Shown in pieces: positions 15,806 through 55,840 of a DNA stretch of 64,000 bases. A program made the position numbers and the translations under genes. The stretch's first letter is position 1, and every line of letters begins with the position of its first letter. Source of the stretch: Gemmatimonadales bacterium (GTDB taxonomy: Bacteria > Gemmatimonadota > Gemmatimonadetes > Gemmatimonadales > GWC2-71-9); the NCBI GenBank assembly GCA_041741375.1, contig JBGSKF010000143.1, positions 18,633-82,632 of the forward strand, in the 5' to 3' direction. The notes under the pieces are model-generated. The model ran no database searches. It was not told where the DNA came from and saw only the letters and a list, made by a program, of their open reading frames with translations.

Positions 15806-16207
15806 CGAGTCCCGTCGTCCGGGCCTTGATGTTTATGGAACTGCCTCAACGCAGAGGCGCAAGGGCGCAGAAGAGCCTGGTGCCCCCCCTCTCCCCGGAT
15901 GTAACCGCTGAGGGCGCGGAGGACGCAGAGGGTTGAGGGCACCCACGACACGTTCCCAGTCTCGGACGGCGGGCATCGGCAGGATGGGGGCCCATCCACC
16001 CCCCAACAAAAGCAGCCGATCTCAGCGCGCGAAACGTTGAGCGACGGGAATCGTTCGGAGACCCTCCGCGACCTCCGTGCTCTCTGCGGTGCCCTCTTCT
16101 AGGGGTGGAAACTACCGATAACACAGATGACGCAGAGGGATAACGGAGCGGCTCCCGCTTCCCGCTTCACACTTCGAACTTCCGATGGTCGTCTCCGGGA
16201 GGATGGC

Positions 16208-16735
16208 ATGCATAGTCGAGCGTTGATAGCGGCCCTCGGTTTGATGGTAGCTGCAGCTCCATCTGTGTCCGCCCAGGCGGCGCCCTTGGGCCAGTCGATC
16301 CAGGGAAGGACCTTTCAAGAAGTCCACGATCTGGACCGAGCGGTGATCGAATGGTTCACCGGCAATGTGCGAGGCGCCAGGAAGGCCGTTGTCCCTCCTG
16401 ATGTCACGGCGGGGCAGGGAGATGCCTTGCCGTTTGACGATTCCACCAGGGCCATGAAAGCGCGGGCGTCCATTACTCGGAATGGCGGCGTTAAGGCCGC
16501 CGCAGGGGCCGCTAAGGACTGCCTGGGGAGGTCGGAGGATGCGTGCTTCATGGCGGCTGACGTGGTGCTGGTGATGCGTCCGTTCCGTCGGCGAGGAGAG
16601 GGAGGCCGATTCCGCGCAGGATATGTGATTTTTACAAAGTATGGTGACACGATCCATCTCACGACGTGGTATGTTGGCTTTGAGGTGTCGGCGGAAGGGA
16701 TCACCGTGACCGATGTCATCGCGGCTATGAGTTGA
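16208..16735 (+). CDS. hypothetical secreted protein
   Basis: ORF 16127..16735 from ATG 16208. Signal peptide MHSRALIAALGLMVAAAPSVSAQA. Lies in an AT-richer region. Confidence 0.45.
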   Translation: MHSRALIAALGLMVAAAPSVSAQAAPLGQSIQGRTFQEVHDLDRAVIEWFTGNVRGARKAVVPPDVTAGQGDALPFDDSTRAMKARASITRNGGVKAAAGAAKDCLGRSEDACFMAADVVLVMRPFRRRGEGGRFRAGYVIFTKYGDTIHLTTWYVGFEVSAEGITVTDVIAAMS

Positions 16736-17028
16736 AGCGAGTTTTGGTCTCGGATCGGGGAGGTGTAGCCGGGCACCTCGTATGGTGCTGCGGGAAGCAC
16801 CGAAAGGGGTGTTGCGGCCTGGAGAATCGTTTGTTGGGGTTTGTGACCGTGAGCCCGGAGGCGTGGCGAGGAGCACAAGTCGGATTCGCAAGGCGCTTGG
16901 CGCCCGATTTTCTGGGGGATGCCTGTAACCCCTGACAGGGGAATGGCGGTAGGAAGTGGCACAACGCCCGCCCCCCACCCATCGCGTCGATTACGACAGG
17001 GGGAGGCACAGGCTTGTGAACTCGAGAC

Positions 17029-17057
17029 TTGCCGCCTCGATGCTGGTCTCGTAGGAT
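17029..17057 (+). promoter_or_regulatory. sigma70-like promoter, copy A (TTGCCG-17 nt-TAGGAT)
   Basis: ttgccg 17029-17034, 17-nt spacer, taggat 17052-17057. The same arrangement is conserved at 19058. Confidence 0.45.
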
Positions 17058-17094
17058 CAGGGGGTCTGTGAAACCCCCGTCATTGAGGTCGATA

Positions 17095-17517
17095 ATGCGC
17101 ATCTTGGCCATTCCCGTCACCCTCTTTCTCTCCCTCGCCGCCTCCGGCCCTCTCACGGCCCAGGCCGACCATGTGGGCCACGGCTTCGGTGAGGTCCTCC
17201 GCATCAAGGCCATGGTGCAACAGGATTCCCTCTACCGAAATGCCCCCCGGGACACCACTCTCCTTCTTCTGATCGAACGGGACGACACCGGGCGGATGCG
17301 CGTGGTCGGCACCGACGACCCTGATATTCCCGATGATGGTCATTTCCGCAATGTCAGCTGCGGGAGAGTGTGCGAGGGCTTCATCAAGCTGGCGAAAGTT
17401 GTGGGTACCGATATCCTTGGGGGTATCGCTGGCTTCTTCGGGAGTGGCGGCTCACTGGTGGGAACCCTTGCTGGGGCAGCGTCAGCCTCGACTGGATTCA
17501 TGCTCGCCGACATGTAA
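17095..17517 (+). CDS. secreted protein, paralog A (conserved N-domain, glycine-zipper-like C-tail)
   Basis: ORF 17029..17517 from ATG 17095. Signal MRILAIPVTLFLSLAASGPLTAQA. The N-domain is shared with 19124. The tail is ILGGIAGFFGSGGSLVGTLAGAASASTGFMLADM. Confidence 0.55.
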   Translation: MRILAIPVTLFLSLAASGPLTAQADHVGHGFGEVLRIKAMVQQDSLYRNAPRDTTLLLLIERDDTGRMRVVGTDDPDIPDDGHFRNVSCGRVCEGFIKLAKVVGTDILGGIAGFFGSGGSLVGTLAGAASASTGFMLADM

Positions 17518-17931
17518 TCGGTGGTTGGCTGGCGCCAGGCCATAGGCCAATATCGTGAGGACGCCGTCTGCACAAAAAGGCGCGCGTCTTCACGTTATTG
17601 CCTTTCAGGTGACGTCGGCATGTCTTCCGATGGCATCGCCGGCGTGAAAGAGCTCTCAACATCCCTGCCTAGGTCGGACCAGGCTCTGGAATTGCGCGTC
17701 TTGTTATGGCATGATTGAAACACGTTCCGCCCCCTGGCTTCGAAAGGTCGAGGGGAGGGACAGGTGGCACACGATGGCTCGGGGCCCGGACCTTGGACCG
17801 GAGACCGGGCGGGGAAAACGGGCCAGTCCTCCTCCGCAGGGTTGCCTGGAAAGGATCCCCGCGTGTTGGGGAAACGAGATCTCGCATGGGGAGGACTGAG
17901 ACCACGGGACCATGGAAGGGGTCGTCACGAA

Positions 17932-18909
17932 GTGGAAGACGCTGTCGCTCTGAGGAATGAAGGCCACTGTGGCCCTCCGCTCAAGACGGACGGGTCGTGG
18001 ATCGCGTTCACCGAAAGGGACGGGCGCGTCTGGCGGATCTGTGAGGTGTGCGGGAGGTGGACCCCTCTCTCTGATGACCTCACGGTGGAGGGACTGGCGC
18101 AACGGTTTGCTGCGGCGGACGACATCGTGTCGGGCCCGGGGTTCTCGACGGCCGCGACCCCAGGTGGTGGCGTGGTGATCCGGATGGAGGACGCCATGGC
18201 CGACTGGGTAGCGCATCCTCTCGAGAAGGCGGAAGAGCCGATCTGGAATCGCCGGAATGTTGAGCTCGGATGGATCGCGGCCAAGAGTGTGGTGATCGCT
18301 GCGGCCCTGCTCTGGCGGCGTGAACTGTGGGATCCCTTTCCGAATTTCTTGGCCTGGCTGGGTGCTCTTATCCTCATTCTCGGGATCGAGCGGGTCCGCC
18401 TGACCGCCGGGTTGCGGCTTGCCGGGCGGGTTGTACGAGGGAGGCGGGCAATCAAGGATGCGGTCCTTGTCCCCATGCTGGGCCCCTGTGGTCACGAGAT
18501 CACCGTGGGCGTGAGAACGGGGGGACCTGATCCGATCACTCTGAGTGATGCGGAGGCCGAGGAGGCACTCCTCAAGATACTGCGACGCGTGAACCGGCTG
18601 GGCTTGGATCTCGACCTCGGTCAAAAGGAACGCAAGGCGGCACGATCTGCTGTTCGCGCGGCGGGTGGCCCGAGGGGATTCCTCGCCACACTCGTTTCTG
18701 ACGGGGAGCGGCCAGTGCGGCAACTCAGCCGTGTCGAACAATTTGCCCTGGAACTCTCCGTGCGTCACGTTGCCGAGGAGGGCCGGGTCCGTTCCCTGAT
18801 ACGGTTTGTGGCAGGGAAGGGTGGATGGATACCGAAGGGAAACGCCATGGGGGAGATCCAGGGGGAAGCACGGCCCGACCTCGCGGTGCAAGGGGGTCGG
18901 CAGCCCTGA
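17932..18909 (+). CDS. hypothetical membrane protein with CxxC motif
   Basis: ORF 17764..18909. Plausible GTG start at 17932 after ggaagggg. Contains RICEVCGRW plus two hydrophobic helices (IAAKSVVIAAALLW, FLAWLGALILILGI). Confidence 0.35.
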   Translation: MEDAVALRNEGHCGPPLKTDGSWIAFTERDGRVWRICEVCGRWTPLSDDLTVEGLAQRFAAADDIVSGPGFSTAATPGGGVVIRMEDAMADWVAHPLEKAEEPIWNRRNVELGWIAAKSVVIAAALLWRRELWDPFPNFLAWLGALILILGIERVRLTAGLRLAGRVVRGRRAIKDAVLVPMLGPCGHEITVGVRTGGPDPITLSDAEAEEALLKILRRVNRLGLDLDLGQKERKAARSAVRAAGGPRGFLATLVSDGERPVRQLSRVEQFALELSVRHVAEEGRVRSLIRFVAGKGGWIPKGNAMGEIQGEARPDLAVQGGRQP

Positions 18910-19057
18910 GGACCGCCCGGATGAAACGACAGATGACACGGATGACGCGGAGGGCGTTCGACGGATGACCCATCTCCCCCCCATCCCCCCCTCCGTCCAA
19001 GTACTCGTACTCTTACGCGAGTTGCTGCCAAGTTCCACAACCGTTTGTTTCTCGCTC

Positions 19058-19086
19058 TTGCCGCCTCGATGCTGGTCGCGTAGGAT
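19058..19086 (+). promoter_or_regulatory. sigma70-like promoter, copy B (TTGCCG-17 nt-TAGGAT)
   Basis: ttgccg 19058-19063, taggat 19081-19086. Part of the duplicated block. Confidence 0.45.
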
Positions 19087-19123
19087 CAGGGGGCCGGTGA
19101 AACCCCTGTCATCGAGGTCACCC

Positions 19124-19513
19124 ATGCGCGTCATGGCCATGTCCGTCACCCTCCTTCTCTCCCTCGCCGCCTCCGGTACTCTCGCGGCCCAGGCCGACCA
19201 CGTAGGCCACGGCTTCGGCGAGGTCCTCCGTATCAAGGCGATGGTGCAGCAGGACTCCCTCTACCGGGCGGCCCCCCGGGACACCACGCTCCTTCTTCTG
19301 ATCGAGCGGGACGACACCGGGCGGCTGCGCGTGGTCGGCACCGCGGCGGACCGTCCGGCCCTGCGACTCCTGAGCCTCGAACGGGGGAGAGGGGCGCTGA
19401 GCGGGCACTTCCCGCCGGGAAGGGGGGTCCCGGCCCGGGTGTACTACTACGTGGTACAGGGGGTCGCGCGCTCCCCTCGTGCCCTGATTCCCGCCGAGGG
19501 AACAGGTAGCTGA
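19124..19513 (+). CDS. secreted protein, paralog B (same N-domain, unrelated C-tail)
   Basis: ORF 18806..19513 from ATG 19124. Begins MRVMAMSVTLLLSLAASGTLAAQADHVGHGFGEVLRIKAMVQQDSLYR... Confidence 0.45.
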   Translation: MRVMAMSVTLLLSLAASGTLAAQADHVGHGFGEVLRIKAMVQQDSLYRAAPRDTTLLLLIERDDTGRLRVVGTAADRPALRLLSLERGRGALSGHFPPGRGVPARVYYYVVQGVARSPRALIPAEGTGS

Positions 19514-19551
19514 CCCCGTCGGCATCCGGCCTGACGGATCCTTTCCCTCCC

Positions 19552-19590
19552 CGTACCCGTACTCGTACCCGTACTCGTACTCGTACACGA
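19552..19590. repeat. CGTAC(T/C) hexamer tandem array
   Basis: cgtacccgtactcgtacccgtactcgtactcgtacacg. A short related copy lies at 19001-19016. Confidence 0.8.
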
Positions 19591-19694: not shown

Positions 19695-19979
19695 ATGTCC
19701 ACCAGCACAACGATTCATGCCTTTGTCCTTGCCGTGTCTGGCGGTGGCTTGCTGGCGAGTGCCGTTCTGGACATGCGAGGACGCGATCGAGCCGTGATAC
19801 TGCTCCTGGTTCCCCTCCAGCTTGCCCTGGTCATCCAGTCGGTGGGGGCCCTGTTCCTGTCGGGGCGGAGTGCGATCGCTGCCGTCATTGTCTCCATGGT
19901 GCTGTTGATTCCTGCCGCTGTCCATAGCATGCGGTTGATTCGGCAATACAGAGCCAAGTCGGCTGTTGGTTCTCGATGA
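19695..19979 (+). CDS. small three-helix membrane protein
   Basis: ORF 19695..19979. Three hydrophobic segments. 4-nt overlap with the next ORF. Confidence 0.4.
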   Translation: MSTSTTIHAFVLAVSGGGLLASAVLDMRGRDRAVILLLVPLQLALVIQSVGALFLSGRSAIAAVIVSMVLLIPAAVHSMRLIRQYRAKSAVGSR

Positions 19980-20535
19980 CTCGCTTCGGCCCGCCGTTAC
20001 TCGCCTTGTTCGTCGCTTCTGCCCTTGTCCACACCACCCGGCCCGCTGGCCTGACGGCGCAAACAGGCCCGGCACGGCCATCGGTCTGGCTTCAGGGCGG
20101 GGTCGCTCCACGATCGGACGCGATGGTTTCCGCCGGGCTGGAGGTTCGGGGAGGCTGGGGCCATCGGGTGACGCCGGTCCTCGCGGTGGTCGGTGTCTGG
20201 CGCGCCTCCGGATGTGACCAGGTGGTCGGCGTCCCGTGCGACGACAGCGGATGGGCGCCGAGCATCGGTGCCCTGATCTCCGTGACCCCGCCGGCAGGGT
20301 CGGCGCGGCGTACGTTGCCCCCCGGGTGGGGGCCATCTTCTACGACGGCTTCGAACGCGGGGTCTGGAACCCGAGTCTCGGGCTCGGCGTGGCGTGGGCC
20401 GGGCAGGGGGCGGTCGGTTTCATGGGCGAAGTGCGGTACAATGCGGTCACCGATTCCCGCTCGAGAAACCGCCCGAACCGTCCCGACACGGGGGACTTCG
20501 TGACGTTCCTTGTTGGACTCACCCTACGGATGTGA
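19976..20535 (+). pseudogene. small outer-membrane beta-barrel-like protein, frameshifted
   Basis: Signal peptide MTRFGPPLLALFVASALVHT is in frame 19976. The beta-barrel-like C-terminus (...GLGVAWAGQGAVGFMGEVRYNAV...FVTFLVGLTLRM) is in frame 20236. The frames switch near 20285. Confidence 0.4.
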
Positions 20536-21240: not shown

Positions 21241-21615
21241 CTAGGCAGTCGGTGGAAAGGGACCGATGGTGTCCTGGCGGCTTTCGGCAAGCTGTACCAA
21301 CGGCTCACCGGCCTCGAGCAGGGTGAGTGCGTCTTTGAATGTCAGCGTGAGGAAACGGCGGAGTGCGATGTTGGAGGTGTTTCCACATGTCACCCAGACG
21401 ATCTGGGGTGGCGCTCCATGTCGCTGGACCAGTTCACAGAAGTCGGCATCCTTCGAGAGGATGATGGCACCGGCTGCTCGTGCCTCGCGGAAGATCTCAG
21501 CGTCCGGGGCGTCGCGAAGACCAAGGGAGCGGACCGCAATGGCCTCGATGCCATACTCCGATTCAAGCCAGGCGCACAGGCCGGGAGGAAGTTGTGCGTC
21601 GAGCCAGACCTTCAC
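21241..21615 (-). CDS. DUF5615 (PIN-like) toxin-type protein
   Basis: ORF 21241..21615. MKVWLDAQLPPGL...ILSKDADF pattern. 4-nt overlap with the upstream DUF433 gene. Confidence 0.75.
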   Translation of the reverse strand: MKVWLDAQLPPGLCAWLESEYGIEAIAVRSLGLRDAPDAEIFREARAAGAIILSKDADFCELVQRHGAPPQIVWVTCGNTSNIALRRFLTLTFKDALTLLEAGEPLVQLAESRQDTIGPFPPTA

Positions 21616-21836
21616 GCGGCCACGATGGGGTGATCCAACTGGCGGCTTGCAAACCGCAAGCTGGCATCGATGTCCTCGGCCACGAGGTCAGGATAATCAG
21701 CGAGGATCTGCTCGCGGGAGACCCCGGCCGCCAGCAAGTCAAGTACATCGGTGACCCGAATCCGCATCCCCCGGATGCAGGGACGGCCACCGCACTGGCC
21801 AGGATCGACGGTGATCCGATCCGCAAGCTGGGTCAT
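21612..21836 (-). CDS. DUF433 antitoxin-type protein
   Basis: ORF 21612..21896 from ATG 21836. ITVDPGQCGGRPCIRGMRIRV is the DUF433 hallmark. Confidence 0.8.
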   Translation of the reverse strand: MTQLADRITVDPGQCGGRPCIRGMRIRVTDVLDLLAAGVSREQILADYPDLVAEDIDASLRFASRQLDHPIVAA

Positions 21837-22058
21837 GGGTTCCTCCGGAGGTAATTTCCATTGGGAAAGATATCCTCGTCCCGACCAGCCCCTCAAGGGA
21901 GGACCCGGATGCTCTCGACAGCAAGGAGGAACTCGTGGTCACCTTCAACAGGGCGGTGTCGCAGCAACGGGCATCACACCTCGGACGACGGGAAGTACTC
22001 CTCCATGGTTCTCAGATCCCCTCGCGGGGCTCGGGGCAGGCTCCTCACTGCGTTCGGA

Positions 22059-24531: not shown

Positions 24532-24585
24532 GCAGGATCACCGCATTCGTGGTGCGGCCCGGGCGAACTCATGAACAAGGAATCA

Positions 24586-24678
24586 ACCACAGAGACACAG
24601 AGAACACAGAGGTGCGTCAGGCAAGCCAGAACCCTTCGCCTGAGCCAACGCTCTCTGTGCCCTCTGTGTCTCCGTGGT
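24586..24678. repeat. MITE-like hairpin element, copy 1
   Basis: Arms accacagagacacagag and ctctgtgtctccgtggt (one mismatch) about 60 nt apart. Copy 2 lies near 25603-25690. This is the source of the HRDTENTE-type spurious ORFs. Confidence 0.6.
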
Positions 24679-24750
24679 GAACCCACTTACGGCGAGGGGT
24701 GTGGGGCTTCGTGCCTTCGTGGCTTCGTGTGAAGGATGTTGCCCCTACAC

Positions 24751-24840
24751 GCTGGGCGAATGTGATTCGCCCCTACCGCCCCTGGGCGAATGTGATTCGC
24801 CCCTACCGCCCCTGGGCGAATGTGATTCGCCCCTACACCG
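24751..24840. repeat. 30-bp tandem repeat x3, each with the hairpin gggcgaatgtgattcgccc
   Basis: Three contiguous units (g/c)ctgggcgaatgtgattcgcccctac(c/a)(g/c)c(c/g). The last unit contains the VapC stop codon. Confidence 0.9.
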
Positions 24841-25246
24841 GCATGATCACGGGTATCCGCTGCCGGCGGTTCCGGCGATAAATGGCGAAGTCTCGATCGA
24901 GGGTGACGACCACGCTGTCCCCGTCGAGTTCACTCATCCGGACCAGGCAGGCATCGGCGAGTGACATCGGCACCGAGGCGTACCGCGCCATCAGGGCGCG
25001 CAGGGCGGGAATCTCCGCGGACATCGAGAACACAGGCTCGATCACCCGGTGCTCGAGCAGGGCGAGCACGGCGTCCTGTCCACCCGGGAAGCGCCGCAGG
25101 AGAAAGCAGGTTTCCGACAGGACGGCCTCGCAGGTGCCGAGCGGCGGTTCGATGGTGTCGAACACCTCGCGCGCCCAGCGGTGATGCCGGTCGCGACGGT
25201 TCAGCAGCGCGACCAGAGGACCGGTGTCGACCAGGACATGGCTCAC
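24833..25246 (-). CDS. vapC: PIN-domain toxin (VapC-like), copy 1
   Basis: ORF 24833..25246. MSHVLVDTGPLVALL... with acidic residues in a PIN arrangement. 4-nt overlap with the antitoxin. Confidence 0.85.
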   Translation of the reverse strand: MSHVLVDTGPLVALLNRRDRHHRWAREVFDTIEPPLGTCEAVLSETCFLLRRFPGGQDAVLALLEHRVIEPVFSMSAEIPALRALMARYASVPMSLADACLVRMSELDGDSVVVTLDRDFAIYRRNRRQRIPVIMPV

Positions 25247-25482
25247 GTACCGTAGCCGGACAAGTGCCTGGGGTTGGTGGAGAGATCCTGGGGTCCCTCG
25301 ATGGTCTCGGCGACCTCATCCGTGATGGAGGTCACCGATCGGGCGGGGCAAGCAGTGAAGGCCACCAGAGCCTCGCGTACCAGGCTGGAGCGGCTGGTGT
25401 TCCTCTGCTGCGCCAGGTCGGTCAGCAGCTCGTCGAGCCCGGGAGGGAGCTTGAAGGAGACGGTGCGCATCGGTTTCGGCAT
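25243..25482 (-). CDS. ribbon-helix-helix (CopG-like) antitoxin, copy 1
   Basis: ORF 25243..25608 from ATG 25482. MPKPMRTVSFKLPPGLDELLTDLAQQRNTSRSSLVREAL. Confidence 0.8.
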   Translation of the reverse strand: MPKPMRTVSFKLPPGLDELLTDLAQQRNTSRSSLVREALVAFTACPARSVTSITDEVAETIEGPQDLSTNPRHLSGYGT

Positions 25483-25513
25483 GGTATTACCTTTCGTACA
25501 TAATCGTAATACC
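25483..25513 (-). promoter_or_regulatory. inverted repeat abutting the antitoxin start (candidate operator), copy 1
   Basis: ggtattac (25483-25490) and gtaatacc (25506-25513) with a 15-nt spacer. The arms are conserved in copy 2. Confidence 0.45.
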
Positions 25514-25759
25514 ACCAAGTGGACAGTCAAGACTCCTTCCCCACGTCTGTACCATCCTGCCCTCTGTACCTCTGCGGCGAACCCCCTCATGATGGACGAA
25601 TCAACCACAGAGACACAGAGAACACAGAGGGTACGTCAGGCAGGCCAGAGCCATCGCCTGCGCCAGTGCTCTCTGTGTCTCCGTGGTGGACCCACTTACG
25701 GCGAGGGGTGTGGGGCTTCGTGCCTTCGTGGCTTCGTGTGAAGGATGTTGCCCCTACAC

Positions 25760-25819
25760 GCTGGGCGAATGTGATTCGCCCCTACCGCCCCTGGGCGAAT
25801 GTGATTCGCCCCTACACCG
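25760..25819. repeat. 30-bp tandem repeat x2 (same unit as 24751)
   Basis: Two units. The last overlaps the VapC copy 2 stop. Confidence 0.9.
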
Positions 25820-26225
25820 GCATGATCACGGGTATCCGCTGCCGGCGGTTCCGGCGATAAATGGCGAAGTCCCGATCGAGGGTGACGACCACGCTGTCCC
25901 CCTCGAGTTCGCTCATCCGGACCAGGCAGGCATCGGCGAGCGACATCGGCACCGAGGCGTACCTCGCCATCAGGGTGCGCAGTTCGGGAATCTCGGCGGA
26001 CATCGAGAACGCCGGCTCGATCACCCGGTGCTCGAGCAGGGCGAGCACGGCATCCTGTCCGCCCGGGAACCGGCGGAGGAGGAAGCAGGCTTCCGACAGG
26101 ACGGCCTCGCAGGTGCCGAGCGGCGGTTCGATGGTGTCGAACACCTCGCGCGCCCACCGGTGATGCCGGTCCCGACGATTCAGCAGGGCGACCAGCGGAC
26201 CGGTGTCGACGAGGACATGGGTCAC
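25812..26225 (-). CDS. vapC: PIN-domain toxin (VapC-like), copy 2
   Basis: ORF 25812..26225. Differs from copy 1 at 6 of 137 residues. Confidence 0.85.
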   Translation of the reverse strand: MTHVLVDTGPLVALLNRRDRHHRWAREVFDTIEPPLGTCEAVLSEACFLLRRFPGGQDAVLALLEHRVIEPAFSMSAEIPELRTLMARYASVPMSLADACLVRMSELEGDSVVVTLDRDFAIYRRNRRQRIPVIMPV

Positions 26226-26461
26226 CTGCCGTAGCCGGACAGGTGCCTGGGGTGGATGGAGAGATCCGGGGGTCCCTCGATGGTCCCGGCGACCTGATCC
26301 GTGATGGAGGTTACCGATCGCGTGGGACGTGCGGTGAAGGCCACCAGAGCCTCGCGCACCAGACTGGAGCGGCTGGTGTTCCTCTGCTGCGCCAGTTCTG
26401 TCAGCAGCTCGTCGAGCCCGGGAGGGAGCTTGAAGGAGACGGTGCGCATTGGTTTCGGCAT
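26222..26461 (-). CDS. ribbon-helix-helix antitoxin, copy 2
   Basis: ORF 26222..26539 from ATG 26461. Differs from copy 1 at 9 of 79 residues. Confidence 0.8.
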   Translation of the reverse strand: MPKPMRTVSFKLPPGLDELLTELAQQRNTSRSSLVREALVAFTARPTRSVTSITDQVAGTIEGPPDLSIHPRHLSGYGR

Positions 26462-26492
26462 GGTATTACCTCTTGTACAAGAACGTAATACC
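26462..26492 (-). promoter_or_regulatory. inverted repeat abutting the antitoxin start (candidate operator), copy 2
   Basis: ggtattac (26462-26469) and gtaatacc (26485-26492). The spacer contains the palindrome cttgtacaag. Confidence 0.45.
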
Positions 26493-26559
26493 AACAAGCG
26501 GGCGGTCAACCCTTTCCCCCTGCCCCGACCCTCCCACACCTCGGGCGAATGTAATTCAC

Positions 26560-35136: not shown

Positions 35137-37584
35137 TCACCCGCCCCGCATCACCATCGCCGGATCCACCCGCGCAGCACGCAGCGCCGGAAGCCAGCAC
35201 GCCACGAGCCCCACCGTCACCATTACCAGTGCTACGAGGATCAGTGTCACCGGATCGTGCGGGGCCACGCCGAACAGGAGACCGCGGATGATGCGGGTCG
35301 CGAACAGCGCCCCGGCGATCCCCAGCACCAGGCCGATGCCGAGCAGTGTGCCACCCTCGCGGATCACCATTCCCTGCACCCGGCTCTGGTCGGCGCCCAG
35401 GCTCATCCGGATCCCGATCTCCAGGGTCCGGGCGCTCACCGAGAATGCCAGCACCCCGGCGATGCCGACGGCGGCGATGAGCACCGCCAGGAGTCCGAAG
35501 GCGCCGATGAGGGCGGCGTTCAGGCGGCGGGGCGCCACGCTCTGGCCCTTGATCTCCGACAGGGTCAGCACGTTCTCGATCGGATCCCGGGGGGCGATGT
35601 TCCGCACCAGCCGGGTCGCAGCCGCTCCCAGAGCGGACGCATCCTGCTCGGAGCGGATCACCAGGCCGCCGGCGAACACCACCTCCTGGGCAAAGGGCTG
35701 GAACAGAACGGGGCGTGGCTCGACATCGAGTCCTCCGTCCCGCGTGTCGCCCACCACGCCAACCACCGTGCGCCAGTCGCCCGTCACCGGAATGAATCGC
35801 AGCACGTCCCCGGTCCACGCCACCCGCTGACCGATCGGGTCCCGGTCCCCGAAGAGCCGTTTGCTCAGCGTCTCGTTGAGGATCACCACCAGGGCGCTCC
35901 CCTCGATGTCGGTGGAGGTGAACTCCCGTCCCCGCAGCACCGGGATCCCGGCCGCCCGGAAATACTCGGGACTCGCCGTGCGATACTCGGCGCGCGGGAT
36001 CGCCTCGCCGACGGCCAGGGCCCGCCCTTCCGCCTTCAACTCGAGTTGGAAGTCCGAGGAGCGGAGGGGGATCACCGAACCGACTCCCACGTCGCGCACC
36101 CCGGGGATCGCGGCGATCTCGTACTTCATCCGGTCGTAGAGCGCCCTGGTGGCGTCGTTGTCTCCATCTCCGCCGCTGACCGGCACTTCCATCGTGAGGA
36201 CCTCGCTCTCGCCCCCGGTGAGACCGGTGTCCACCTCCGAGAGTCGGAGCATGGTGCGGGTCAGGAGGCCCGCTCCGGTCAGGAGGATCACGGAGACGGC
36301 GACCTGAGCCACGACAAGCGCGCGTTGGAGCCGTTGGCGGCGCAGGGTGCCGCTGGCGCGCGCCACGCCCTGGGCCATCCAGGTGCCGAGGGTTCCCTCC
36401 CGGGCGAGCCGCGGCGCGAAGGAGAGGAGGAGGGCCACGGCCACGGTCAGCACCAGGGTGAAGCCCAGGACCATGGCGTCGAGCCGGATTTCCCCGGCCC
36501 GGGGAGAAACCCGTTCCGCGAAGGCGATGAGGAGCTGCAACCCGCCCGCGGCCAGTACGAGACCCAGGACGGCGCCACCCAGGGCCAGCACCAGGTTCTC
36601 CACCAGAAGCAGGCGGCGGAGGCGGCCGGCCCCGGCCCCCAGCGCGGCCCGGATCACCAGTTCATGCTCGCGTCGCACCCCGCGCATCAGGGTCAGGTTG
36701 GCGACGTTGGCGGCGGAAATGATCATCACGAAGGCCGCGGCGCCCATCAGGAGCCAGAGGGTCAGGCGCGCGCGCTCGCCGAGCACCTCGTGGAAGGGAG
36801 TGAGGGTGACGCGGTATCCGGACGCGGCATCGTAGGCGTCGGGGTGATCGGCCTGGACCCGGGCGCGGATCGTCTCCACCTCGCTGCGGGCCTGGGGCAG
36901 CGTGGCGCCGGGAGCCAGGCGGGCGATCATCTCCGTCATCCGGTGGGTTCGGCCCGTCACCATCATGGCGCTGGTGTGGTGCTCGCTGATCACCATGTTC
37001 ATCAGCGCATCCATCCGGTTCGGGAAGGTGGGGGCAGGCTCCACCACGCCAACCACCGTCACCGCTCGTCCGTCCACCAGGATCGTCTGTCCGACGATCC
37101 CACTGTCCCCCTGGAACCGCTTCAACCAGTACTCGTGGGTCAGGACCATCACGGGAGGCACGGCGGTGCCGTCGTCTCCGTCGGTCAGCAGCCGGCCCAG
37201 GGCCGGAGCGAGGCCCATGACCTGGAAATAGTTTCCGGTGACGAGCCCGACGGTCATCCGGACCGCGTCGTTGTCCCCCTGGAGGGTGTAGGTCATGGGG
37301 GAGTACTCGGCGATCCCCCCAAGGGTACTGGCGCCTTCCCGGAAGTCGTCGATTTCGGGCACGGAGAAGAGCACGTTCTCTCCGCCCGGGCCTTCGACCG
37401 ACTGGCGGAGGTAGACCAGCCGGTCGCCGTCGCGATGGGGAAGGGGACGGAGGAGCACGCCGCGCACCACGCTGAAGATGGCGGTGTTGGCGCCGATGCC
37501 GAGCCCGAGCGTCAGGACCACGGTGAGGGTGAAGCCGTGGGCCTTGGCGAGGGAGCGCAGGGAGAAGCGGAGATCAGCGAGCAT
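35137..37584 (-). CDS. ADOP-family duplicated MacB/FtsX-like ABC permease
   Basis: ORF 35137..37584 (815 aa). MLADLRFSLRSLAKAHGFTLTVVLTLGLGIGANTAIFSVV..., two FtsX modules. Confidence 0.9.
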   Translation of the reverse strand: MLADLRFSLRSLAKAHGFTLTVVLTLGLGIGANTAIFSVVRGVLLRPLPHRDGDRLVYLRQSVEGPGGENVLFSVPEIDDFREGASTLGGIAEYSPMTYTLQGDNDAVRMTVGLVTGNYFQVMGLAPALGRLLTDGDDGTAVPPVMVLTHEYWLKRFQGDSGIVGQTILVDGRAVTVVGVVEPAPTFPNRMDALMNMVISEHHTSAMMVTGRTHRMTEMIARLAPGATLPQARSEVETIRARVQADHPDAYDAASGYRVTLTPFHEVLGERARLTLWLLMGAAAFVMIISAANVANLTLMRGVRREHELVIRAALGAGAGRLRRLLLVENLVLALGGAVLGLVLAAGGLQLLIAFAERVSPRAGEIRLDAMVLGFTLVLTVAVALLLSFAPRLAREGTLGTWMAQGVARASGTLRRQRLQRALVVAQVAVSVILLTGAGLLTRTMLRLSEVDTGLTGGESEVLTMEVPVSGGDGDNDATRALYDRMKYEIAAIPGVRDVGVGSVIPLRSSDFQLELKAEGRALAVGEAIPRAEYRTASPEYFRAAGIPVLRGREFTSTDIEGSALVVILNETLSKRLFGDRDPIGQRVAWTGDVLRFIPVTGDWRTVVGVVGDTRDGGLDVEPRPVLFQPFAQEVVFAGGLVIRSEQDASALGAAATRLVRNIAPRDPIENVLTLSEIKGQSVAPRRLNAALIGAFGLLAVLIAAVGIAGVLAFSVSARTLEIGIRMSLGADQSRVQGMVIREGGTLLGIGLVLGIAGALFATRIIRGLLFGVAPHDPVTLILVALVMVTVGLVACWLPALRAARVDPAMVMRGG

Positions 37585-37932: not shown

Positions 37933-38190
37933 TCAGCCTTTGCCCCACCTCGCCACCAGCCCCTGCAACGTCGCCGAGGCCGTGCTCTCGTCATGGGGCA
38001 CCAGGAGGTACGTCCACGGCTTCTCAGCATATTCCGCCGCAAACACGCTCGCATGCCCACACCACTCCACCGCCGCTTGGGCCTTGGCCTGGACCTCGGG
38101 ATCCTCCATCTCATTGGCCGCCTTCACCTCGACCAGGAGTCCTCGTTCCCCCGCTTCCATCGCGAAGTTGGGTTCGTATTGACACTCCAT
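37933..38190 (-). pseudogene. remnant of a type III res gene (C-terminal about 80 codons only)
   Basis: ORF 37933..38190 (...LLVEVKAANEMEDPEVQAKAQAAVEWCGHASVFAAEYAEKPWTYLLVPHDESTASATLQGLVARWGKG) parallels the C-terminus of the intact res at 40212. Confidence 0.75.
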
Positions 38191-38385: not shown

Positions 38386-39129
38386 CTATGGGCGAGGCCA
38401 GCCATCCGGATCGTGGGGGTCGAATGGACGTTTCATCGCCACAAGATACGGGTGGTCCTTGGCCCAAAATGATGCTTCGACCATGCGAGCCACAGGGAGG
38501 ATGAGGACGCTTTCAGCCCCTGCCTCCAGCAGGCATCCGGCCGAGCTGAGTGCCGTGGCTCCCGTCACCCACGTATCTTCGATCAAGACGATGCGCTTTC
38601 CGGTAGTCTTCTCCGACGCCCGGAATGCGGAGGGCTTGTACTCCTTGCGCCCGAGGGTTTCCGTCCTCTTGAACCTCACTGCCTCCACGAGCGCGTCCGC
38701 GAGCGGTCTGACGCGTGCCAGCGCCAACCGGAGTGGCTGGTGTTCGAAATCGACGCCGCGCTTTGAAGGAACTACAGTGATGAAGGACGGATCGCCACCC
38801 AGGGCGCTACGAATCTTCCCCTGGTGTGTCATCGTGTATTCGTATACGAGCGATGCGATGAGAGCGCCGTGCTCCTTCTGAAGCGTCTTGTAGGTTTGGA
38901 GTCTGGTGTACCAGGGACTCGGGTTGATGGCGGCGGTAATCGGCACGACACACTTCTGGAAAACCTCCGGAACCCCCGCCTTCCGGAAGAGCATGTGACA
39001 CGCGTGGCACATCTCGTACTCGTTCACCGGCCCGAGGCAGCAGCGGCAGACAGAGCCGGAGTTATCGAGTTTCGGAACGCTGCCGAGGATGCCGGCTGCT
39101 TGCGCCAGAATTTCTCGGGTTGTCGGCAT
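38386..39129 (-). CDS. ComF-type phosphoribosyltransferase with N-terminal zinc ribbon (ShosT-like)
   Basis: ORF 38386..39129. CRCC...CHAC zinc ribbon. PRTase motif IVLIEDTWVTGATAL. Confidence 0.75.
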   Translation of the reverse strand: MPTTREILAQAAGILGSVPKLDNSGSVCRCCLGPVNEYEMCHACHMLFRKAGVPEVFQKCVVPITAAINPSPWYTRLQTYKTLQKEHGALIASLVYEYTMTHQGKIRSALGGDPSFITVVPSKRGVDFEHQPLRLALARVRPLADALVEAVRFKRTETLGRKEYKPSAFRASEKTTGKRIVLIEDTWVTGATALSSAGCLLEAGAESVLILPVARMVEASFWAKDHPYLVAMKRPFDPHDPDGWPRP

Positions 39130-39135
39130 CCGGAA

Positions 39136-40071
39136 TCAAACGCCGACGGTGATCGGTCCCCGTAGTGCCACATCAAGGCGTTCAATCACATCGGCTGCCG
39201 ATGTGATCTCAACAGCCCTGGTTCCGAACGCCCCCTCGGTCACGTACTTCCTGGCCCACTCCCGAGTCCTCACCAGCTCGGAATGCAGGAACACGGTACG
39301 GCCATGCTGCAGCGCAACACGGGCTTGAATTCGTGCCCCGGATGTGTCTGAGGCCTCAACGACGATGGTCGCGAGTGACAGTCCGGACATCACGACGTTC
39401 CGCATCGGAAACGTCCACTTGGTCGGAGGTTGGTCCGGTGTGAACTGCGATATCAGCGTGCCTCCGGAAGCGAGGATCTCCTCCGCGAGGGTTGCATTCT
39501 CCGCAGGGTAGAGGCGTTTGAGCCCGCTGCCGAGCACCGCACAGGTTACTCCTCCAGCCTGCAGGGTGGCACGGTGAGCTGCCGTGTCTATCCCAACAGC
39601 CAGGCCGGAGAGGATGACAAAGCCATCACTGACGAGTTGTGAAGTGATCTCCGCCGCGATTCCCAGTGCCTTCGGTCCTGCGGCACGCGCCCCGACGATG
39701 GACACAGACCGTGTTCCCAAGGCAGCAGGCAACACGCCCCGGATGAAGAGGAGCGGTGGGCGGTTGAAGACGTCGTGAAGTGGCTCGGGGTATCCACTAT
39801 CCAGCACCGTCACCGGTTCCAGTCCCTGCGCACGCCAGACGGCGAGATCCTCTCTGGCCCGTTGCAGGTCCTCCGCTGTCACGGCGCCTATGAACTGATG
39901 TACTGGCTTTGGCCAGGCAAATAACCGATCCTCCTCGGCAAGTTCGACCAGACGCAACGCCGAACCAGTATGGCCGATCAGTGCCCCGAGGTGCTCCTGG
40001 GGAACAACCCGTGCACGCTGGAGCGCCAAGGTGGCCGCAGTCTCGTCAAGTGGGAAGTCGGCCGCTACCAT
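39136..40071 (-). CDS. DprA/Smf (SLOG) family protein (ShosA-like)
   Basis: ORF 39136..40230 from ATG 40071 (ggagga Shine-Dalgarno). SIVGARAAG...SGLAVGIDTAAHRATLQAGGVTCAVLGSGLKRLYPAEN. Confidence 0.8.
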   Translation of the reverse strand: MVAADFPLDETAATLALQRARVVPQEHLGALIGHTGSALRLVELAEEDRLFAWPKPVHQFIGAVTAEDLQRAREDLAVWRAQGLEPVTVLDSGYPEPLHDVFNRPPLLFIRGVLPAALGTRSVSIVGARAAGPKALGIAAEITSQLVSDGFVILSGLAVGIDTAAHRATLQAGGVTCAVLGSGLKRLYPAENATLAEEILASGGTLISQFTPDQPPTKWTFPMRNVVMSGLSLATIVVEASDTSGARIQARVALQHGRTVFLHSELVRTREWARKYVTEGAFGTRAVEITSAADVIERLDVALRGPITVGV

Positions 40072-40211
40072 CGTTCCTCCGTGCTGGCGACTCGGGTGGC
40101 CCTGTCCATGGGGTATGAAGCAATGCACCCGAATATATACCGAAATAGCCGCTTCCGAAAGCTCCACCCTTCTGCCCCAACCCGAAACATACGAGGACTC
40201 CTTGGCCCCAT

Positions 40212-42896
40212 CTACTCCCCTCTCCCCCACTTCGCCACCAGCCCCTGCAACGTCGCCGAGGCCGTGATCTCGTCATGGGGCACCAGGAGGTAGGTCCACG
40301 GCTTCTCGCCATATCCCGCCGCAAACACGCTCGCATGCCCGCACCACTCCACCGCCGCCCGGGCCTTGGCCTGGACCTCGGGATCCTCCATCTCATTCGC
40401 CGCCTTCACCTCGATCAGCAGCTTCCGGTCGGTGGTTTCCGCAACGAAATCCGGTTCGTAGGACTGGGACTGGCCGTGGCCCCAGAAGATCCGCGGCGGC
40501 GGCCCGGCGAGCCGAGCCCACTTCACCACCTCCGGCGCGTCATCGAGCAGAACCGCCATCCGCCGCTCGGCGTCCGAATCGAACCGGGCCTCCCTGTAGA
40601 TGGACTTCCGGAAGTGCCCGAACCGCATCCCCCGGATCCGGCTCGGCGCCTGCACCGCAAACCGGACATCGCGCACCTTCTCCGCCTGGTCCGCCGTGCT
40701 CGCCTGGGGGGGAAGCTGCTCGAATCCCTTGCTGATCCGCGCCTCGTAGCCCACCGCATCCTCCCAGGCATGTTCCGCGAGCTGCGCATGCACCAGCTCC
40801 CCAATCTGGCGCTCGTAGAACTGGAGCACGTTCTTCACCGCGTCATCGTCCGGCAGGTAGCTCCGGAGCCGCGCCACCACCTGCCCCGCCAGCTTGTACA
40901 GCAGCTCGGAGTGGCTGTCATACGACACGTCGGGCCGGCCCACCAATGACCGCACCACGAAGTTCTCCAACCGCGGCTCATCCATCCGCGACGTGACACC
41001 CGAGAGCGTTTCCCGTGTGCTTTCGGAGAGGTGCTGAATCAGAATGTCGTTGTCCACCGGCTGGAAGTTGATCTTCGAGACGTCGAGCTCGAAGTCGCGG
41101 AATCCCGTTCGTACCTCCCCCTTCGGCACCACGAGGATCCGCGGGATGTCGATGTTGATCAGGCTGTAGATTTCCACCGCTTTCGACACCGGCGCGTCGA
41201 GATCCTCGGTGGAGCGGAGCGGGAGTTCCGCCTGAATTCCGGCGAGATGTTCCCGAACAGCCTGGACCAGACGGCTTCGCGGTTCATCATCGAGGAGGGA
41301 GCGGGTGGAGGGATAGTGCGCAAAGGCTGGGTGGTGAATCACCTCCAACGTGGCCCGTGCCACCTGGATGTCCTCCTCCGAGGTGAACACCGGCGGGGGA
41401 GCCTCCGGTGCGCCGTCGGTCACGGGGGGAGGGAGGAACATTGCCTGCGCGGGAGACGGCACCACCACCGCCACCCGGCCCACGGGGAGCGATTCCTCGT
41501 TCCCGATGTATACCGGCACATACCGGATCGCCGAGTCGGAACGGTTGGCCTCGTCGATGATCTCCTGGAACCGGTCGTGCGCCACGATGGTGAGCCGGTC
41601 CACCGCCGAGACACCGGTGCGCCGGCCGTAGGGGAGCCGGAGTCCCCGTCCGATGGACTGCTCCACCAGAGTGCGGCTTGTGGCGGTGCGGAGCGGCACG
41701 ATGGTGTAGAGGTTGGTGACGTCCCATCCCTCCTTCAGCATGTTCACGTGAATCACGATCTCGGTCGGTTCGGCGGGGTCCTCCACCTTGAGGAGCCGCT
41801 CGACGTTCTCCTCCCTCTCGTCCCCGCGGAGCGTCGAGTGCACCGTAATGACCTTGGCCGCATACTGGCCGCCGAAGAACGCCTCTCCCTTGATCCGCGC
41901 CTCGAGTTCCGCGGCGTGGGTCGTGTCCTTTGCCACCACGAGCATGAACGGCTTGACCTGCGGCTTCCCCTCCCGGATGGCGTAGGTCTGCAGCTCGGCC
42001 TTCACCGCCTCATGGATCCGGACCCCGTCCTCCAGCTTGAGCAGTTCCAGTTGCTCCTCGGTATACACCCCGGCGTCGAAGTTCTCCCGGGTGGCCACGG
42101 CAGGCTCCTTCACGAAGCCGTCGCGGAGAGCGTGGGTCAAGGGGTAGGAATAGATCACGTTCTTGAACGGCACCGGGGGCCGGGCGCCCCGTTCGATCTG
42201 CGGCGTGGCGGTGACCTCGAGCCCCAGGACCGGCTTGAGCTCATTGATGGCGTTCATTCCGGCGGCGGCGCGGTAGCGGTGGGACTCATCCATGAGCAGC
42301 ACGAGATCGGGGAGCTTGGAGAGGTACTCGAAGTAGCTCTCCCCGATGTACTCGTTGAGTCGCTTGACCCGGGGGGCGCTCCCACCCCGTACCTCGGTGT
42401 TGATCTTGGAGATGTTGAAGAGGTTGATGTTCACATCCCCCTCGCCGAAGAGATCGCCGCGCAGCGCCCGGCCGCTCTCCCAGTTGTCCCCGGTGATGAG
42501 TTCCGGCGGGTGGGTGGCGAACTCGGCGAGCCCCTGGAACACGTATTTCGGGGTGTTCGGGGTGAAGTCCGCGATCAGCTTGTTGTAGATGGTGAGGTTG
42601 GGGGCCAGCACGAAGAAGTGCCGGATCCCCTTGACCCGCCGGAGCCAGGCGATGAAGGCGCCCATGAGCCGAGTCTTGCCGACCCCGGTGGCGAGGGCGA
42701 AGCAGAGGGAGGGGAAGTCGCGTTCGAAGTCCTGCACCGAGGGGTACGCGGCGCTGACCCGTTCCAAGGCCGCGGCGACGTCCTGGTTCTTGGTGAGGGG
42801 GATCAGTTCGGTCGCGGCGGCGAGGATCTCCAGCGCCTCCCGCTGGGGCGCGCGGAGCGAGAGCCGTCCGGCCACTGCCGCGACTTCCCGGCTCAT
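40212..42896 (-). CDS. res: type III restriction enzyme Res subunit (DEAD/DEAH helicase-nuclease)
   Basis: ORF 40212..42896. Motif I ATGVGKT, motif II LLMDESHRY, helicase C region. 4-nt overlap with mod. Confidence 0.85.
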   Translation of the reverse strand: MSREVAAVAGRLSLRAPQREALEILAAATELIPLTKNQDVAAALERVSAAYPSVQDFERDFPSLCFALATGVGKTRLMGAFIAWLRRVKGIRHFFVLAPNLTIYNKLIADFTPNTPKYVFQGLAEFATHPPELITGDNWESGRALRGDLFGEGDVNINLFNISKINTEVRGGSAPRVKRLNEYIGESYFEYLSKLPDLVLLMDESHRYRAAAGMNAINELKPVLGLEVTATPQIERGARPPVPFKNVIYSYPLTHALRDGFVKEPAVATRENFDAGVYTEEQLELLKLEDGVRIHEAVKAELQTYAIREGKPQVKPFMLVVAKDTTHAAELEARIKGEAFFGGQYAAKVITVHSTLRGDEREENVERLLKVEDPAEPTEIVIHVNMLKEGWDVTNLYTIVPLRTATSRTLVEQSIGRGLRLPYGRRTGVSAVDRLTIVAHDRFQEIIDEANRSDSAIRYVPVYIGNEESLPVGRVAVVVPSPAQAMFLPPPVTDGAPEAPPPVFTSEEDIQVARATLEVIHHPAFAHYPSTRSLLDDEPRSRLVQAVREHLAGIQAELPLRSTEDLDAPVSKAVEIYSLINIDIPRILVVPKGEVRTGFRDFELDVSKINFQPVDNDILIQHLSESTRETLSGVTSRMDEPRLENFVVRSLVGRPDVSYDSHSELLYKLAGQVVARLRSYLPDDDAVKNVLQFYERQIGELVHAQLAEHAWEDAVGYEARISKGFEQLPPQASTADQAEKVRDVRFAVQAPSRIRGMRFGHFRKSIYREARFDSDAERRMAVLLDDAPEVVKWARLAGPPPRIFWGHGQSQSYEPDFVAETTDRKLLIEVKAANEMEDPEVQAKARAAVEWCGHASVFAAGYGEKPWTYLLVPHDEITASATLQGLVAKWGRGE

Positions 42897-47931: not shown

Positions 47932-48254
47932 TCCCCGTACTCGTGACTGGAGGGATGCCTTCAAGGTAACGGGAACGACCGAGTCGAGCAAGCGGGAAAT
48001 GAGAACATAAACTGTTTTGTTGCAAGACGTTACGATGGTTGGCATCGGATCCGCTCCTGTCGAGCCACGAGAATGGCGCCTCAGTTGTGACGTGATCCCT
48101 AAAGTGTGGTTGCGTAGCACGAATCATGCTGTGAAGGATAGGAGATAGCACTTTCAGGGGACATTGCGCACATTTTCGGCACAAAAAGCACATTGCGGTT
48201 GCTATATTGTTCTCCAGGTGCTGGATGTCACTCTCCCGAAGCCCAGGAAGAACG

Positions 48255-49610: not shown

Positions 49611-50254
49611 GTCGTGGCCGAGGGCGGGGAGGAAGCAGGGAGAACCTCCGGAGGAAGCCACCCACTCGTGACCCCCGCCCTCGCATTCTGGTGCTGTGCG
49701 AGGGCGCGAAGTGCGAGCCTGGCTACCTGAGGGCGTTCTGCCGACATTTCCGAGCTACGTCGGTCGTTCTTGACAAGGCGGCCGGTCTTGATCCCAAGGC
49801 ATTGGTGGAGGTCGCGCGTACTCGCCTTCGGGAATCCCGGCGCGAGGCGAAGCAATATCGGGACAAGAACCTGGAGTTTGACCAGGTATGGTGCGTTGTG
49901 GATGTCGACGATCACCGCCGATTGCAGGAAGCTCGGATCATGGCGCGGGACAATGGCATCGAGCTCGTGATCTCGAACCCCTGCTTCGAGTTGTGGCTGA
50001 TCCTGCATTTTCGAGATCAGACAGCGTACATCGACCGGTTTCAACTCAAATCGGCGTGCCGGAACCTGTCGGAGAGCGACCGCGCTGGATATCCACCGTT
50101 TGCGATCTGCGTTTCTCACTACGACACGGCGGTTGGCCGGGCCCGGCAACTTGACGACCGCAACGACAGGGATGGCGAGCCGGGCAGGAACCCCTCGACG
50201 AGCGTGTACCGCCTGACTGAACGGATTCTGGAGATCGTGAACCTTTCGACCTAG
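49607..50254 (+). CDS. RloB-like protein (AbiLii-like)
   Basis: ORF 49607..50254. ILVLCEGAKCEPGYL... and VWCVVDVDDH are typical of the RloB family. 4-nt overlap with the ATPase. Confidence 0.8.
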   Translation: MSRGRGRGGSRENLRRKPPTRDPRPRILVLCEGAKCEPGYLRAFCRHFRATSVVLDKAAGLDPKALVEVARTRLRESRREAKQYRDKNLEFDQVWCVVDVDDHRRLQEARIMARDNGIELVISNPCFELWLILHFRDQTAYIDRFQLKSACRNLSESDRAGYPPFAICVSHYDTAVGRARQLDDRNDRDGEPGRNPSTSVYRLTERILEIVNLST

Positions 50255-51050: not shown

Positions 51051-51053
51051 CGG

Positions 51054-51623: not shown

Positions 51624-51627
51624 GCCC

Positions 51628-55727: not shown

Positions 55728-55840
55728 CCCTACGCTATAACGCTATGCGTGTCAGCCTGATAGTAAATCGCTTTTATTATGACATTCTGGACAATAAAGT
55801 GGACATTTCCTTGGATAATCCTGCCGGAGACAAGGACGAT

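Follow-up and report, generated by a model that had tools for sequence, protein, structure and literature searches.

Gene A, a gene of 140 codons in a 64-kb stretch of DNA (65% G+C; the whole stretch analysed, referred to below as the window) from a Gemmatimonadales bacterium, is an in-frame fusion of parts of two other genes. It has the promoter-like element, 5′ untranslated region (5′UTR), signal peptide and first 73 codons of a B-type gene, represented in the window by gene B further downstream, and these are joined to the last 67 codons of a gene for a putative lipoprotein, here designated X, which is present in related contigs. Between A and B lies the gene for a membrane protein, p381. 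Relatives of the locus were found in one Gemmatimonadales metagenome-assembled genome (MAG) and in a few metagenome contigs (given L-numbers here). Gene A is probably an old chimeric gene, apparently maintained, within an islet that is restricted to its lineage and prone to rearrangement; the fusion event itself is of an already known kind.

A duplicated 5′ block ahead of genes A and B

The locus contains a single direct repeat of 287 nucleotides (nt) at 17028-17314 and 19057-19343, its copies being 89% identical, ungapped, sharp at both ends and 2029 nt apart (blastn E = 5e-107 between them). No third copy was detected with blastn within the window. Each copy, as read from the sequence, carries a TTGCCG-17-TAGGAT element, a 5′UTR, a GAGG motif, a Sec signal peptide and 73 codons, after which the identity between A and B breaks off sharply. 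The original prediction, made by a model from the sequence alone, had described close-copy blocks with a promoter, 5′UTR, signal peptide and N-terminal part, and the repeat bears this out; the block ends that it gave (17029-17330 and 19058-19340) were off by 16 and 3 nt respectively.

Over a promoter core of 37 nt, from the −35 hexamer to CAGGGGG, the A and B copies are the same at 36 positions, despite a difference of ~26% at synonymous sites between the two genes. Both hexamers and their 17-nt spacing are also retained in L004 and L001, with a variable spacer sequence. The GAGG motif, read as a ribosome site, lies 6 nt ahead of the ATG codon (17095 in A, 19124 in B). A conserved 5′UTR hairpin (GGGGG...CCCCC) was also considered and was dropped, as it is not kept in L001. 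The signal peptide of A is under relaxed constraint, with a dS of 0.05 and a dN/dS of 2.95 in comparison with that of B.

The two parents of gene A

X is a protein of ~296 amino acids (aa) with a signal sequence MGTTLRASVLLMLLAVMGC ending before SG and a lipobox-like LLAVMGC. Protein space amounting overall to ~15 billion proteins was searched, with a word-indexed search covering 5.8 billion protein clusters and an exhaustive HMMER scan covering 1.84 billion cluster representatives. In the HMMER scan the tail of A was found in just one 296-aa protein, P0011, which represents the X cluster. At the DNA level, collinearity between contig L011 and the window starts at nucleotide 17314 exactly and extends through p381 (1594 nt at 87% identity), and the last 67 residues of the L011 X protein are 84% identical to residues 74-140 of A, the tail DDPTIPDDGRFRNFACGSLCKGLIKLAQVVGTDILGGIAGFFGSGGSPVGTLAGAASASTGFMLGDM of the former aligning with DDPDIPDDGHFRNVSCGRVCEGFIKLAKVVGTDILGGIAGFFGSGGSLVGTLAGAASASTGFMLADM of the latter. 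The X tails of L002 and L009 are 54-56% identical to that of A. Across the X and A tails the elements C..C, IKLA.VVGTD, GGI.GF and AST..ML are invariant. The remainder of X, an N-terminal domain of ~230 aa, is found nowhere in the 64-kb window.

At the joint, A reads ...GGCACCG followed by ACGACCC, B reads ...GGCACCG followed by CGGCGG, and X reads ...GTGGCG followed by GACGACCC. The microhomology amounts to 1-2 nt and lies right at the start of the acidic, proline-rich linker of X. The G+C content at third codon positions (GC3) is 0.82 in the 5′ part of A and 0.63 in its tail, the corresponding values for B and the L011 X gene being 0.85 and 0.63. Both parents have thus been found, collinearity switches from B to X at a single point (17314) and composition steps there too, from which it follows that A is an in-frame fusion.

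Gene B represents the normal form of its family

The N-terminal part that A shares with B was found in eight proteins or clusters by the word-indexed search. Seven of these (one of them truncated) are of the B type, with ~129 aa and one conserved tail, ...VPARVYYYVVQGV.RSPRALIP, and the eighth, the sole exception, is the A type, for which the databases hold one sequence. The B-type tail is uniform in P0002-P0008 as well as in additional copies at the related loci. The clusters have 1-5 members, the HMMER scan restricts the N-part to the B cluster, and a scan of metagenome contigs for the B family returned nothing. Three further HMMER hits (P0009, P0010, P0012), being long and repetitive, were discarded as artefacts. 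Judged by these sequences, gene B is the normal form of the family.

An AlphaFold model of B built with eight sequences (pLDDT, the predicted local distance difference test, 51) has a helix at residues 31-49 and strands at 58-62, 68-73, 81-86 and 89-93. No fold was assigned to it, because Foldseek gave no match against the Protein Data Bank (PDB) with an E-value below 0.4. In this model the repeat breakpoint falls within the single small domain of B, so that the shared block is predicted not to be a domain cassette. The original prediction had seen here a shared N-domain with swappable C-termini, a proposal that fares poorly in that the breakpoint cuts inside the domain of B (low-confidence model) and in that the search for the N-domain and the catalogue of C-termini, which it had suggested, returned uniform tails elsewhere. 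Its statement that the two proteins diverge completely after the N-part into unrelated tails was borne out. When all three frames of both tails were compared no similarity was seen in any of them, and the B tail is therefore not a frameshifted copy of the A tail.

The tail module and its neighbour p381

The tail has an amphipathic helix, GFIKLAKVVGTD, between its CxxxC motif and a C-terminal segment of 33 residues, in which there is small-xxx-small spacing (G119xxxG123xxxG127 among others). It occurs on two different N-termini, namely that of A in the window and that of lipoprotein X in L002, L009 and L011. The description of the A tail as glycine-zipper-like was to this extent apt, as the tail is a conserved portable module, while the likeness to bacteriocins that was also drawn was not supported by any family match. 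A word-indexed search with a two-sequence alignment of the tail gave no scored match; it is treated as uninformative, as it missed the window's own protein too.

The longest open reading frame (ORF) of p381 has 381 aa and begins at 17764, with the most likely start being a GTG codon at 17932, giving 325 aa. It had been described as a CxxC membrane protein between A and B, and its CEVC motif and two hydrophobic segments agree with this. Homologues of p381 form four clusters only; a scan of genome contigs returned just the known Gemmatimonadales MAG contig, and the same scan of metagenome contigs returned nothing. A p381 homologue lies immediately downstream at all four tail-bearing loci (the window, L002/L010, L009 and L011), and p381 also occurs without a tail gene in L004-L006, in L013 and as a truncated copy in L002. 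By the positive-inside rule, its domains are probably mostly cytoplasmic.

Copies of p381 were compared from the window (17932-18909), L002 (13826-14815) and L013 (2078-3022). When the p381 paired with tail type 2 (L002) is set against those paired with type 1 (window, L011), the transmembrane hairpin is the part that has diverged fastest, at 41% identity, the flanking domains showing 70-74%. The L013 protein is more distant overall and has no tail gene nearby, and its hairpin shows 68% identity. This single comparison, in which the p381 hairpin diverges with the tail type, hints at a contact between the tail and the hairpin. If the tail has a cognate partner, it would be p381 rather than the small membrane ORFs following B, among which the original prediction had proposed to look for immunity genes; a small membrane protein was rightly anticipated there, in the form of a 94-aa ORF with three hydrophobic segments (p94). 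The constant presence of p381 next to the tail fits a toxin-immunity dependency, and it fits simple synteny among close relatives as well.

Alternative states of the locus

In L011 the gene order is X-p381-B and in L002 it is B1...X-p381′-B2, with X directly upstream of the p381 homologue and a B-type gene following. The B gene of L011 (2161-2540) runs in two frames, one giving residues 1-91 and the other residues 79-127, and is an apparent pseudogene in the only locus where X is still intact. L001 has exactly one block and lacks window positions 17315-19056. The upstream flank of this block is like that of A, its downstream side is like B and most of the block itself resembles B, a pattern in favour of a deletion that arose when the repeats recombined. 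In L004-L006 and L002, p381 is fused directly at its front to decayed remnants (76-84% identical) of promoter, ribosome site and signal peptide. In addition L002 carries a truncated second p381, and the p381 homologue of L013 has no A, B or X nearby. B-type genes have at least five different upstream contexts, three of which join the block at the same nucleotide, at the −35 hexamer. At such junctions a palindromic element and a hexamer array, both described below, occur repeatedly. This stretch of genes for orphan proteins, exported or membrane-bound, is a hot spot for rearrangement.

A (GTACYC)n hexamer array follows B-type genes ~40 nt past their stop codons, with a varying number of units, in L001 (2431), L002 (10430-10457), L012 (655) and L014 (737). 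Nine matches to the array occur in the window, 0.8 being expected, and seven of the nine are at the A/B locus.

A palindromic element of ~190 nt, resembling a miniature inverted-repeat transposable element or repetitive extragenic palindrome, was also identified in the window (15896-16100). It has a 31-bp outer stem, and its consensus folds at −86 kcal/mol, with no compensatory changes. Further copies are present in L001 (3790-3996), L002 (10516-10720 and two more), L004 (5458-5660 and 2800-2969), L011 (3128-3322) and L012 (1-99 and 2352-2499). There is thus one copy in the window and there are several per related locus, at rearrangement junctions beside B-type genes. A right-end fragment, GATGACACGGATGACGCGGAGGG, is found in the window at 18923-18952, just past the stop codon of p381.

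Reality, age and apparent maintenance of gene A

The window comes from a MAG, short-read assemblers can be misled by repeats of the length seen here, and a relative with a single block exists (L001), so it was considered that a metagenome assembler might have merged two strains by way of the 287-nt repeat. This is very improbable. Contigs L007 and L008, assembled independently from separate runs, agree with the window, the former being 100% identical to 16051-19576 (3.5 kb) and the latter 99.85% identical to 16643-19318 (2.7 kb). The joint between the block and the X tail at 17314 has no common sequence able to produce a false join, which together with these contigs shows that the arrangement is not an assembly artefact. 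The two block copies moreover differ at 31 positions and are accordingly distinct loci.

In the mature N-part, A differs from B with a dS of 0.32 and a dN/dS of 0.10, and the tail of A differs from that of the L011 X gene with a dS of 0.40 and a dN/dS of 0.25, the replacements being almost all outside the glycine-rich segment. By comparison, B and its L004 orthologue have a dS of 0.05 and 0 non-synonymous changes, which leaves their dN/dS uninformative. The A block is an outgroup to all B copies, with which it shares 87-91% identity, the B copies sharing 89-95% with one another. A fusion separated from each of its parents by a dS of 0.3-0.4 is not a young one. Gene A could still be a non-functional by-product, that is, a fusion ORF left behind by a deletion and open by chance and youth. 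Its type is known from one sequence, it retains part of the B domain only (according to the model), and decay is seen around it, both in relatives (the frameshifted B of L011, the relics in L004 and L002, the truncated p381 of L002) and in the window, where p175 looks frameshifted. Such an origin is nevertheless unlikely, for at this distance from its parents A has kept an intact frame of 140 codons with low dN/dS in both halves, its A-specific codon changes in the mature N-part are mainly synonymous (four, with two non-synonymous; small counts), its promoter core has stayed like that of B and the fusion point lies exactly on the linker boundary. An old fusion with both halves constrained and a conserved regulatory block is what these data suggest, in a manner suggestive rather than decisive.

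Several observations weigh against the interpretation of A as a maintained, exported and membrane-associated product. The selection tests rest on few substitutions, and part of the low dN/dS may be owed solely to the partner lineages, B and X. Nor is the sequence of events polarised with certainty, as with the single copy in L001, which could be a deletion or the ancestral state. The promoter-like element has 8/12 matches to the sigma-70 consensus, and a consensus scan with a threshold of 9/12 therefore did not report it. The tail has a Kyte-Doolittle hydropathy of 1.0-1.4 over 19 residues, under the usual transmembrane threshold, and no Pfam glycine-zipper model matches it; sub-threshold hydropathy is common for glycine-zipper segments. 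The AlphaFold models have low pLDDT values, 38 in the case of A alone and 51 in that of B, so the notions of half a domain and of a helical hairpin rest on secondary-structure-level inference.

Comparison with toxin systems and other known systems

The original prediction compared the locus to polymorphic secreted toxin or bacteriocin loci. Polymorphic toxin systems (contact-dependent inhibition [CDI], Rhs, MafB, LXG) combine a conserved N-terminal region with variable C-terminal toxins and downstream immunity genes. In common with these, A and B share an N-terminal region and differ in their C-termini, the tail occurs on two N-termini and the membrane protein gene p381 always follows the tail and sometimes stands alone. 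In contrast to them, there is no trafficking, secretion or toxin domain at the locus, the N-domain family has only two C-termini with all other members uniform, the block shared by A and B includes the promoter and cuts through a domain, and export would be by Sec or as a lipoprotein only, with no dedicated secretion system nearby. The uniformity of the C-termini is where the polymorphic-toxin reading fails, uniform C-termini elsewhere being a result that the original prediction had itself named as refuting it. The family searches were also negative: A, B, p381 and the neighbouring ORFs gave no match in Pfam, NCBIfam or PADLOC, and X gave none in Pfam or PADLOC. The isolated tails in three variants had no Pfam match at E-values up to 10, with X likewise having no glycine-zipper match, and PDB sequence and profile searches with p381, X and the tail returned nothing. 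The tail corresponds to no recognised toxin fold or family in Pfam (E up to 10), PADLOC or PDB profile searches. Among the large ORFs of the window scanned with Pfam there are no genes for type V, VI or VII (T5, T6, T7) secretion or for C39-ABC export; an 815-aa ABC-type gene (35137-37584) resembles the MacB/FtsX-type permease annotated in L001. A also differs from class II bacteriocins and microcins, with no bacteriocin match in Pfam, and its Sec leader ending in AQA and the lack of a C39-ABC exporter in the window argue that it is not one of these.

C-terminal glycine-zipper toxins have been reported, namely TelE (PMC10434224) and EsxX (PMC12744356), and A resembles these in having at its extreme C-terminus an uncharged segment rich in Gly, Ala and Ser with small-xxx-small spacing. 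They are LXG effectors of a secretion system of type VII (T7SS) in Gram-positive bacteria, whereas the A locus lacks both an LXG domain and a T7SS and bears them no resemblance in sequence. A second likeness is to the envelope-stabilising, glycine-zipper outer-membrane lipoproteins SlyB, Pcp and YfgH (bioRxiv 10.64898/2025.12.22.696046, 10.64898/2026.06.08.730324), as X combines its lipobox-like sequence with a glycine-zipper-like hydrophobic hairpin. However, the zipper of X and A lies at the very C-terminus after CxxxC, A has a signal-peptidase-I site and no lipobox, and since no Pfam glycine-zipper model is matched (E up to 10), A and X are not recognisable members of these lipoprotein families. 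A functional resemblance to the TelE and EsxX toxins or to the SlyB and YfgH envelope lipoproteins is possible.

It has also been weighed whether the tail could be a membrane-depolarising antibacterial module with p381 as its cognate immunity protein, the N-parts serving as interchangeable carriers in an array with orphan immunity genes. The occurrence of p381 after all four tails and also alone, as orphan immunity genes do, the low identity of its hairpin between tail types beside better conserved flanks and the L013 hairpin, the existence of TelE and EsxX and the purifying selection on the tail (dN/dS 0.25) would all agree with this. Set against it are the co-variation being one comparison, the lack of any match to toxin, bacteriocin, immunity or defence models and of T5, T6, T7 or C39-ABC genes in the window, and a Sec signal or lipobox that in a diderm would reach the periplasm or envelope at most. 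Furthermore, there are two tail types and two N-termini only among the 15 billion proteins, and p381 is large and probably mostly cytoplasmic, unlike typical small immunity proteins. We regard this explanation as unlikely. The broader proposal, in which the tail and p381 would form a new Gemmatimonadales-confined membrane toxin-immunity or obligate-partner module, delivered by Sec or as a lipoprotein, arrayed with orphan p381 genes and placed on a carrier N-terminus that, as gene A would show, can be exchanged with the tail and p381 staying paired, is likewise unlikely.

Chimeric genes, by comparison, arise by partial duplication or deletion between neighbouring genes and by domain shuffling. 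A matches these in its identifiable parents, sharp in-frame junction, 1-2 nt of microhomology and compositional step, in a recruited 5′ part that supplies promoter and export signal, and in leftover repeats that mediate more deletions. It departs from the usual case in that A, B and X are all orphan families with no known function, and in that its intermediate and derived states are found in metagenome contigs only, within a narrow Gemmatimonadales lineage.

Proposed origin and working of gene A

Preferring the reading of A as a maintained chimera, we suggest that the ancestral locus held the gene for lipoprotein X (~296 aa, with CxxxC and the glycine-zipper tail), then p381, then gene B. An in-frame joint would have formed between the initial 287 nt of a B-type gene and the final 67 codons of X, with the loss of the promoter, lipobox and ~230-aa N-domain of the latter. 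The simplest route would be one deletion reaching from a B-type copy upstream into X and giving A-p381-B, and it appears simplest because of the order B1...X-p381′-B2 in L002. Leftover direct repeats may then have acted as recombination substrates generating the locus states of the relatives.

Given their near-identical putative promoters, A and B should be co-regulated, and both are predicted to be exported by Sec, with cleavage following AQA. Once mature, A would serve as a soluble carrier in the periplasm, made up of one half of the B fold (in a low-confidence model, the helix plus two of the four strands, those that come first) and bearing the tail of X. The CxxxC motif of the tail may form a periplasmic disulfide, and the 33-residue segment is most likely a helical hairpin embedded in the envelope membrane, putatively beside the transmembrane hairpin of p381. 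In X the tail would work together with a lipid anchor, and in A it would have been moved onto a new soluble carrier.

Features of the locus and of the rest of the window

Features at the A/B locus (window coordinates)
Feature	Position	Strand	Basis or remark
p202, exported orphan protein, conserved left neighbour of the variable segment	16127-16735	+	
Repeat copy 1: promoter-like element, 5′UTR, signal peptide and codons 1-73 of gene A	17028-17314	+	
Promoter-like TTGCCG-17-TAGGAT of gene A	17029-17057	+	TTGCCG 17029-17034, TAGGAT 17052-17057
Gene A, 140 aa, B-type 5′ part and X-type 3′ tail	17095-17517	+	sequence comparison with B and X
Predicted Sec signal peptide of A, 24 residues, AQA before D	17095-17166	+	sequence; hydropathy peak at residues 3-22
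X-derived tail: acidic Pro linker, CxxxC, amphipathic helix, 33-residue uncharged Gly/Ala/Ser-rich segment	17314-17517	+	
p381, membrane protein: N-terminal CEVC, two hydrophobic segments, large C-terminal part	17932-18909	+	
Repeat copy 2: equivalent elements before and within gene B	19057-19343	+	
Promoter-like TTGCCG-17-TAGGAT of gene B	19058-19086	+	TTGCCG 19058-19063, TAGGAT 19081-19086
Gene B, 129 aa, conserved full-length family form	19124-19513	+	every other homologue has its tail
(GTACYC)n hexamer array after B	19550-19586	+	three more units at 19001-19016, upstream of the B promoter
p94, 94 aa, three hydrophobic segments, conserved right neighbour of B	19695-19979	+	

To the right of p94, p175 (19976-20503) and an overlapping ORF at 20236-20535 (span 19976-20535) match one 186-aa gene in L001 and L012, so that the window carries either a frameshift or a sequencing error in an exported protein. 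Right of the orphan cluster lies a pair encoding DUF433 and PIN-like DUF5615 proteins (21241-21896, minus strand; Pfam E = 2e-25 and 1.5e-21), a putative toxin-antitoxin. A toxin-antitoxin-like pair has been duplicated in tandem as a whole at 24568-25542 and 25586-26519 (976 nt, 88.7% identical), giving two 137-aa proteins of matching sequence. These are encoded on the minus strand at 24833-25246 and 25812-26225, resemble PIN/VapC toxins by eye and are each accompanied by a small partner ORF upstream. Neither an Rfam nor a tRNA scan gave any match in the window.

Another direct repeat, of 203 nt and 93% identity (37937-38139 and 40219-40421), flanks a two-gene insert on the minus strand that matches the ShosTA defence system (38386-39129 and 39136-40230), in which the ShosA/DprA-like match is strong (E = 3e-59) and that to the ShosT-like phosphoribosyltransferase weak (E = 4e-3). 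Through the repeat, the 3′ end of the adjacent type III restriction gene (40212-42896, followed by the methylase gene, 42893-44515) is present twice, as though the ShosTA-like pair had been inserted into the end of res. Positions 48207-55679 resemble a defence island, with an AAA_21 ATPase and an RloB-like protein (48207-50254), helix-turn-helix (HTH) and PIN proteins (50520-51623), and a SNF2-family helicase and a Fic-domain protein (51628-55679, minus strand). Part of this stretch is flanked by a 54-nt inverted repeat of 96% identity (50738-50791 and 55839-55892).

Significance

The locus documents well how, in an uncultured phylum, a gene has been born by fusion: the parents, the exact joint and the recruited promoter and signal peptide can all be seen, together with indications that the product is under selection and with several other states of the locus. 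Two orphan modules are defined by it, these being a predicted periplasmic domain of the B type and a tail with CxxxC and a glycine zipper that has p381 as its constant neighbour. The finding is mainly of evolutionary and annotation interest. To our knowledge no system like that of the tail and p381 has been described in Gemmatimonadota, and if the two do act as a toxin-immunity or membrane-partner system, they would constitute a new envelope module for this phylum.

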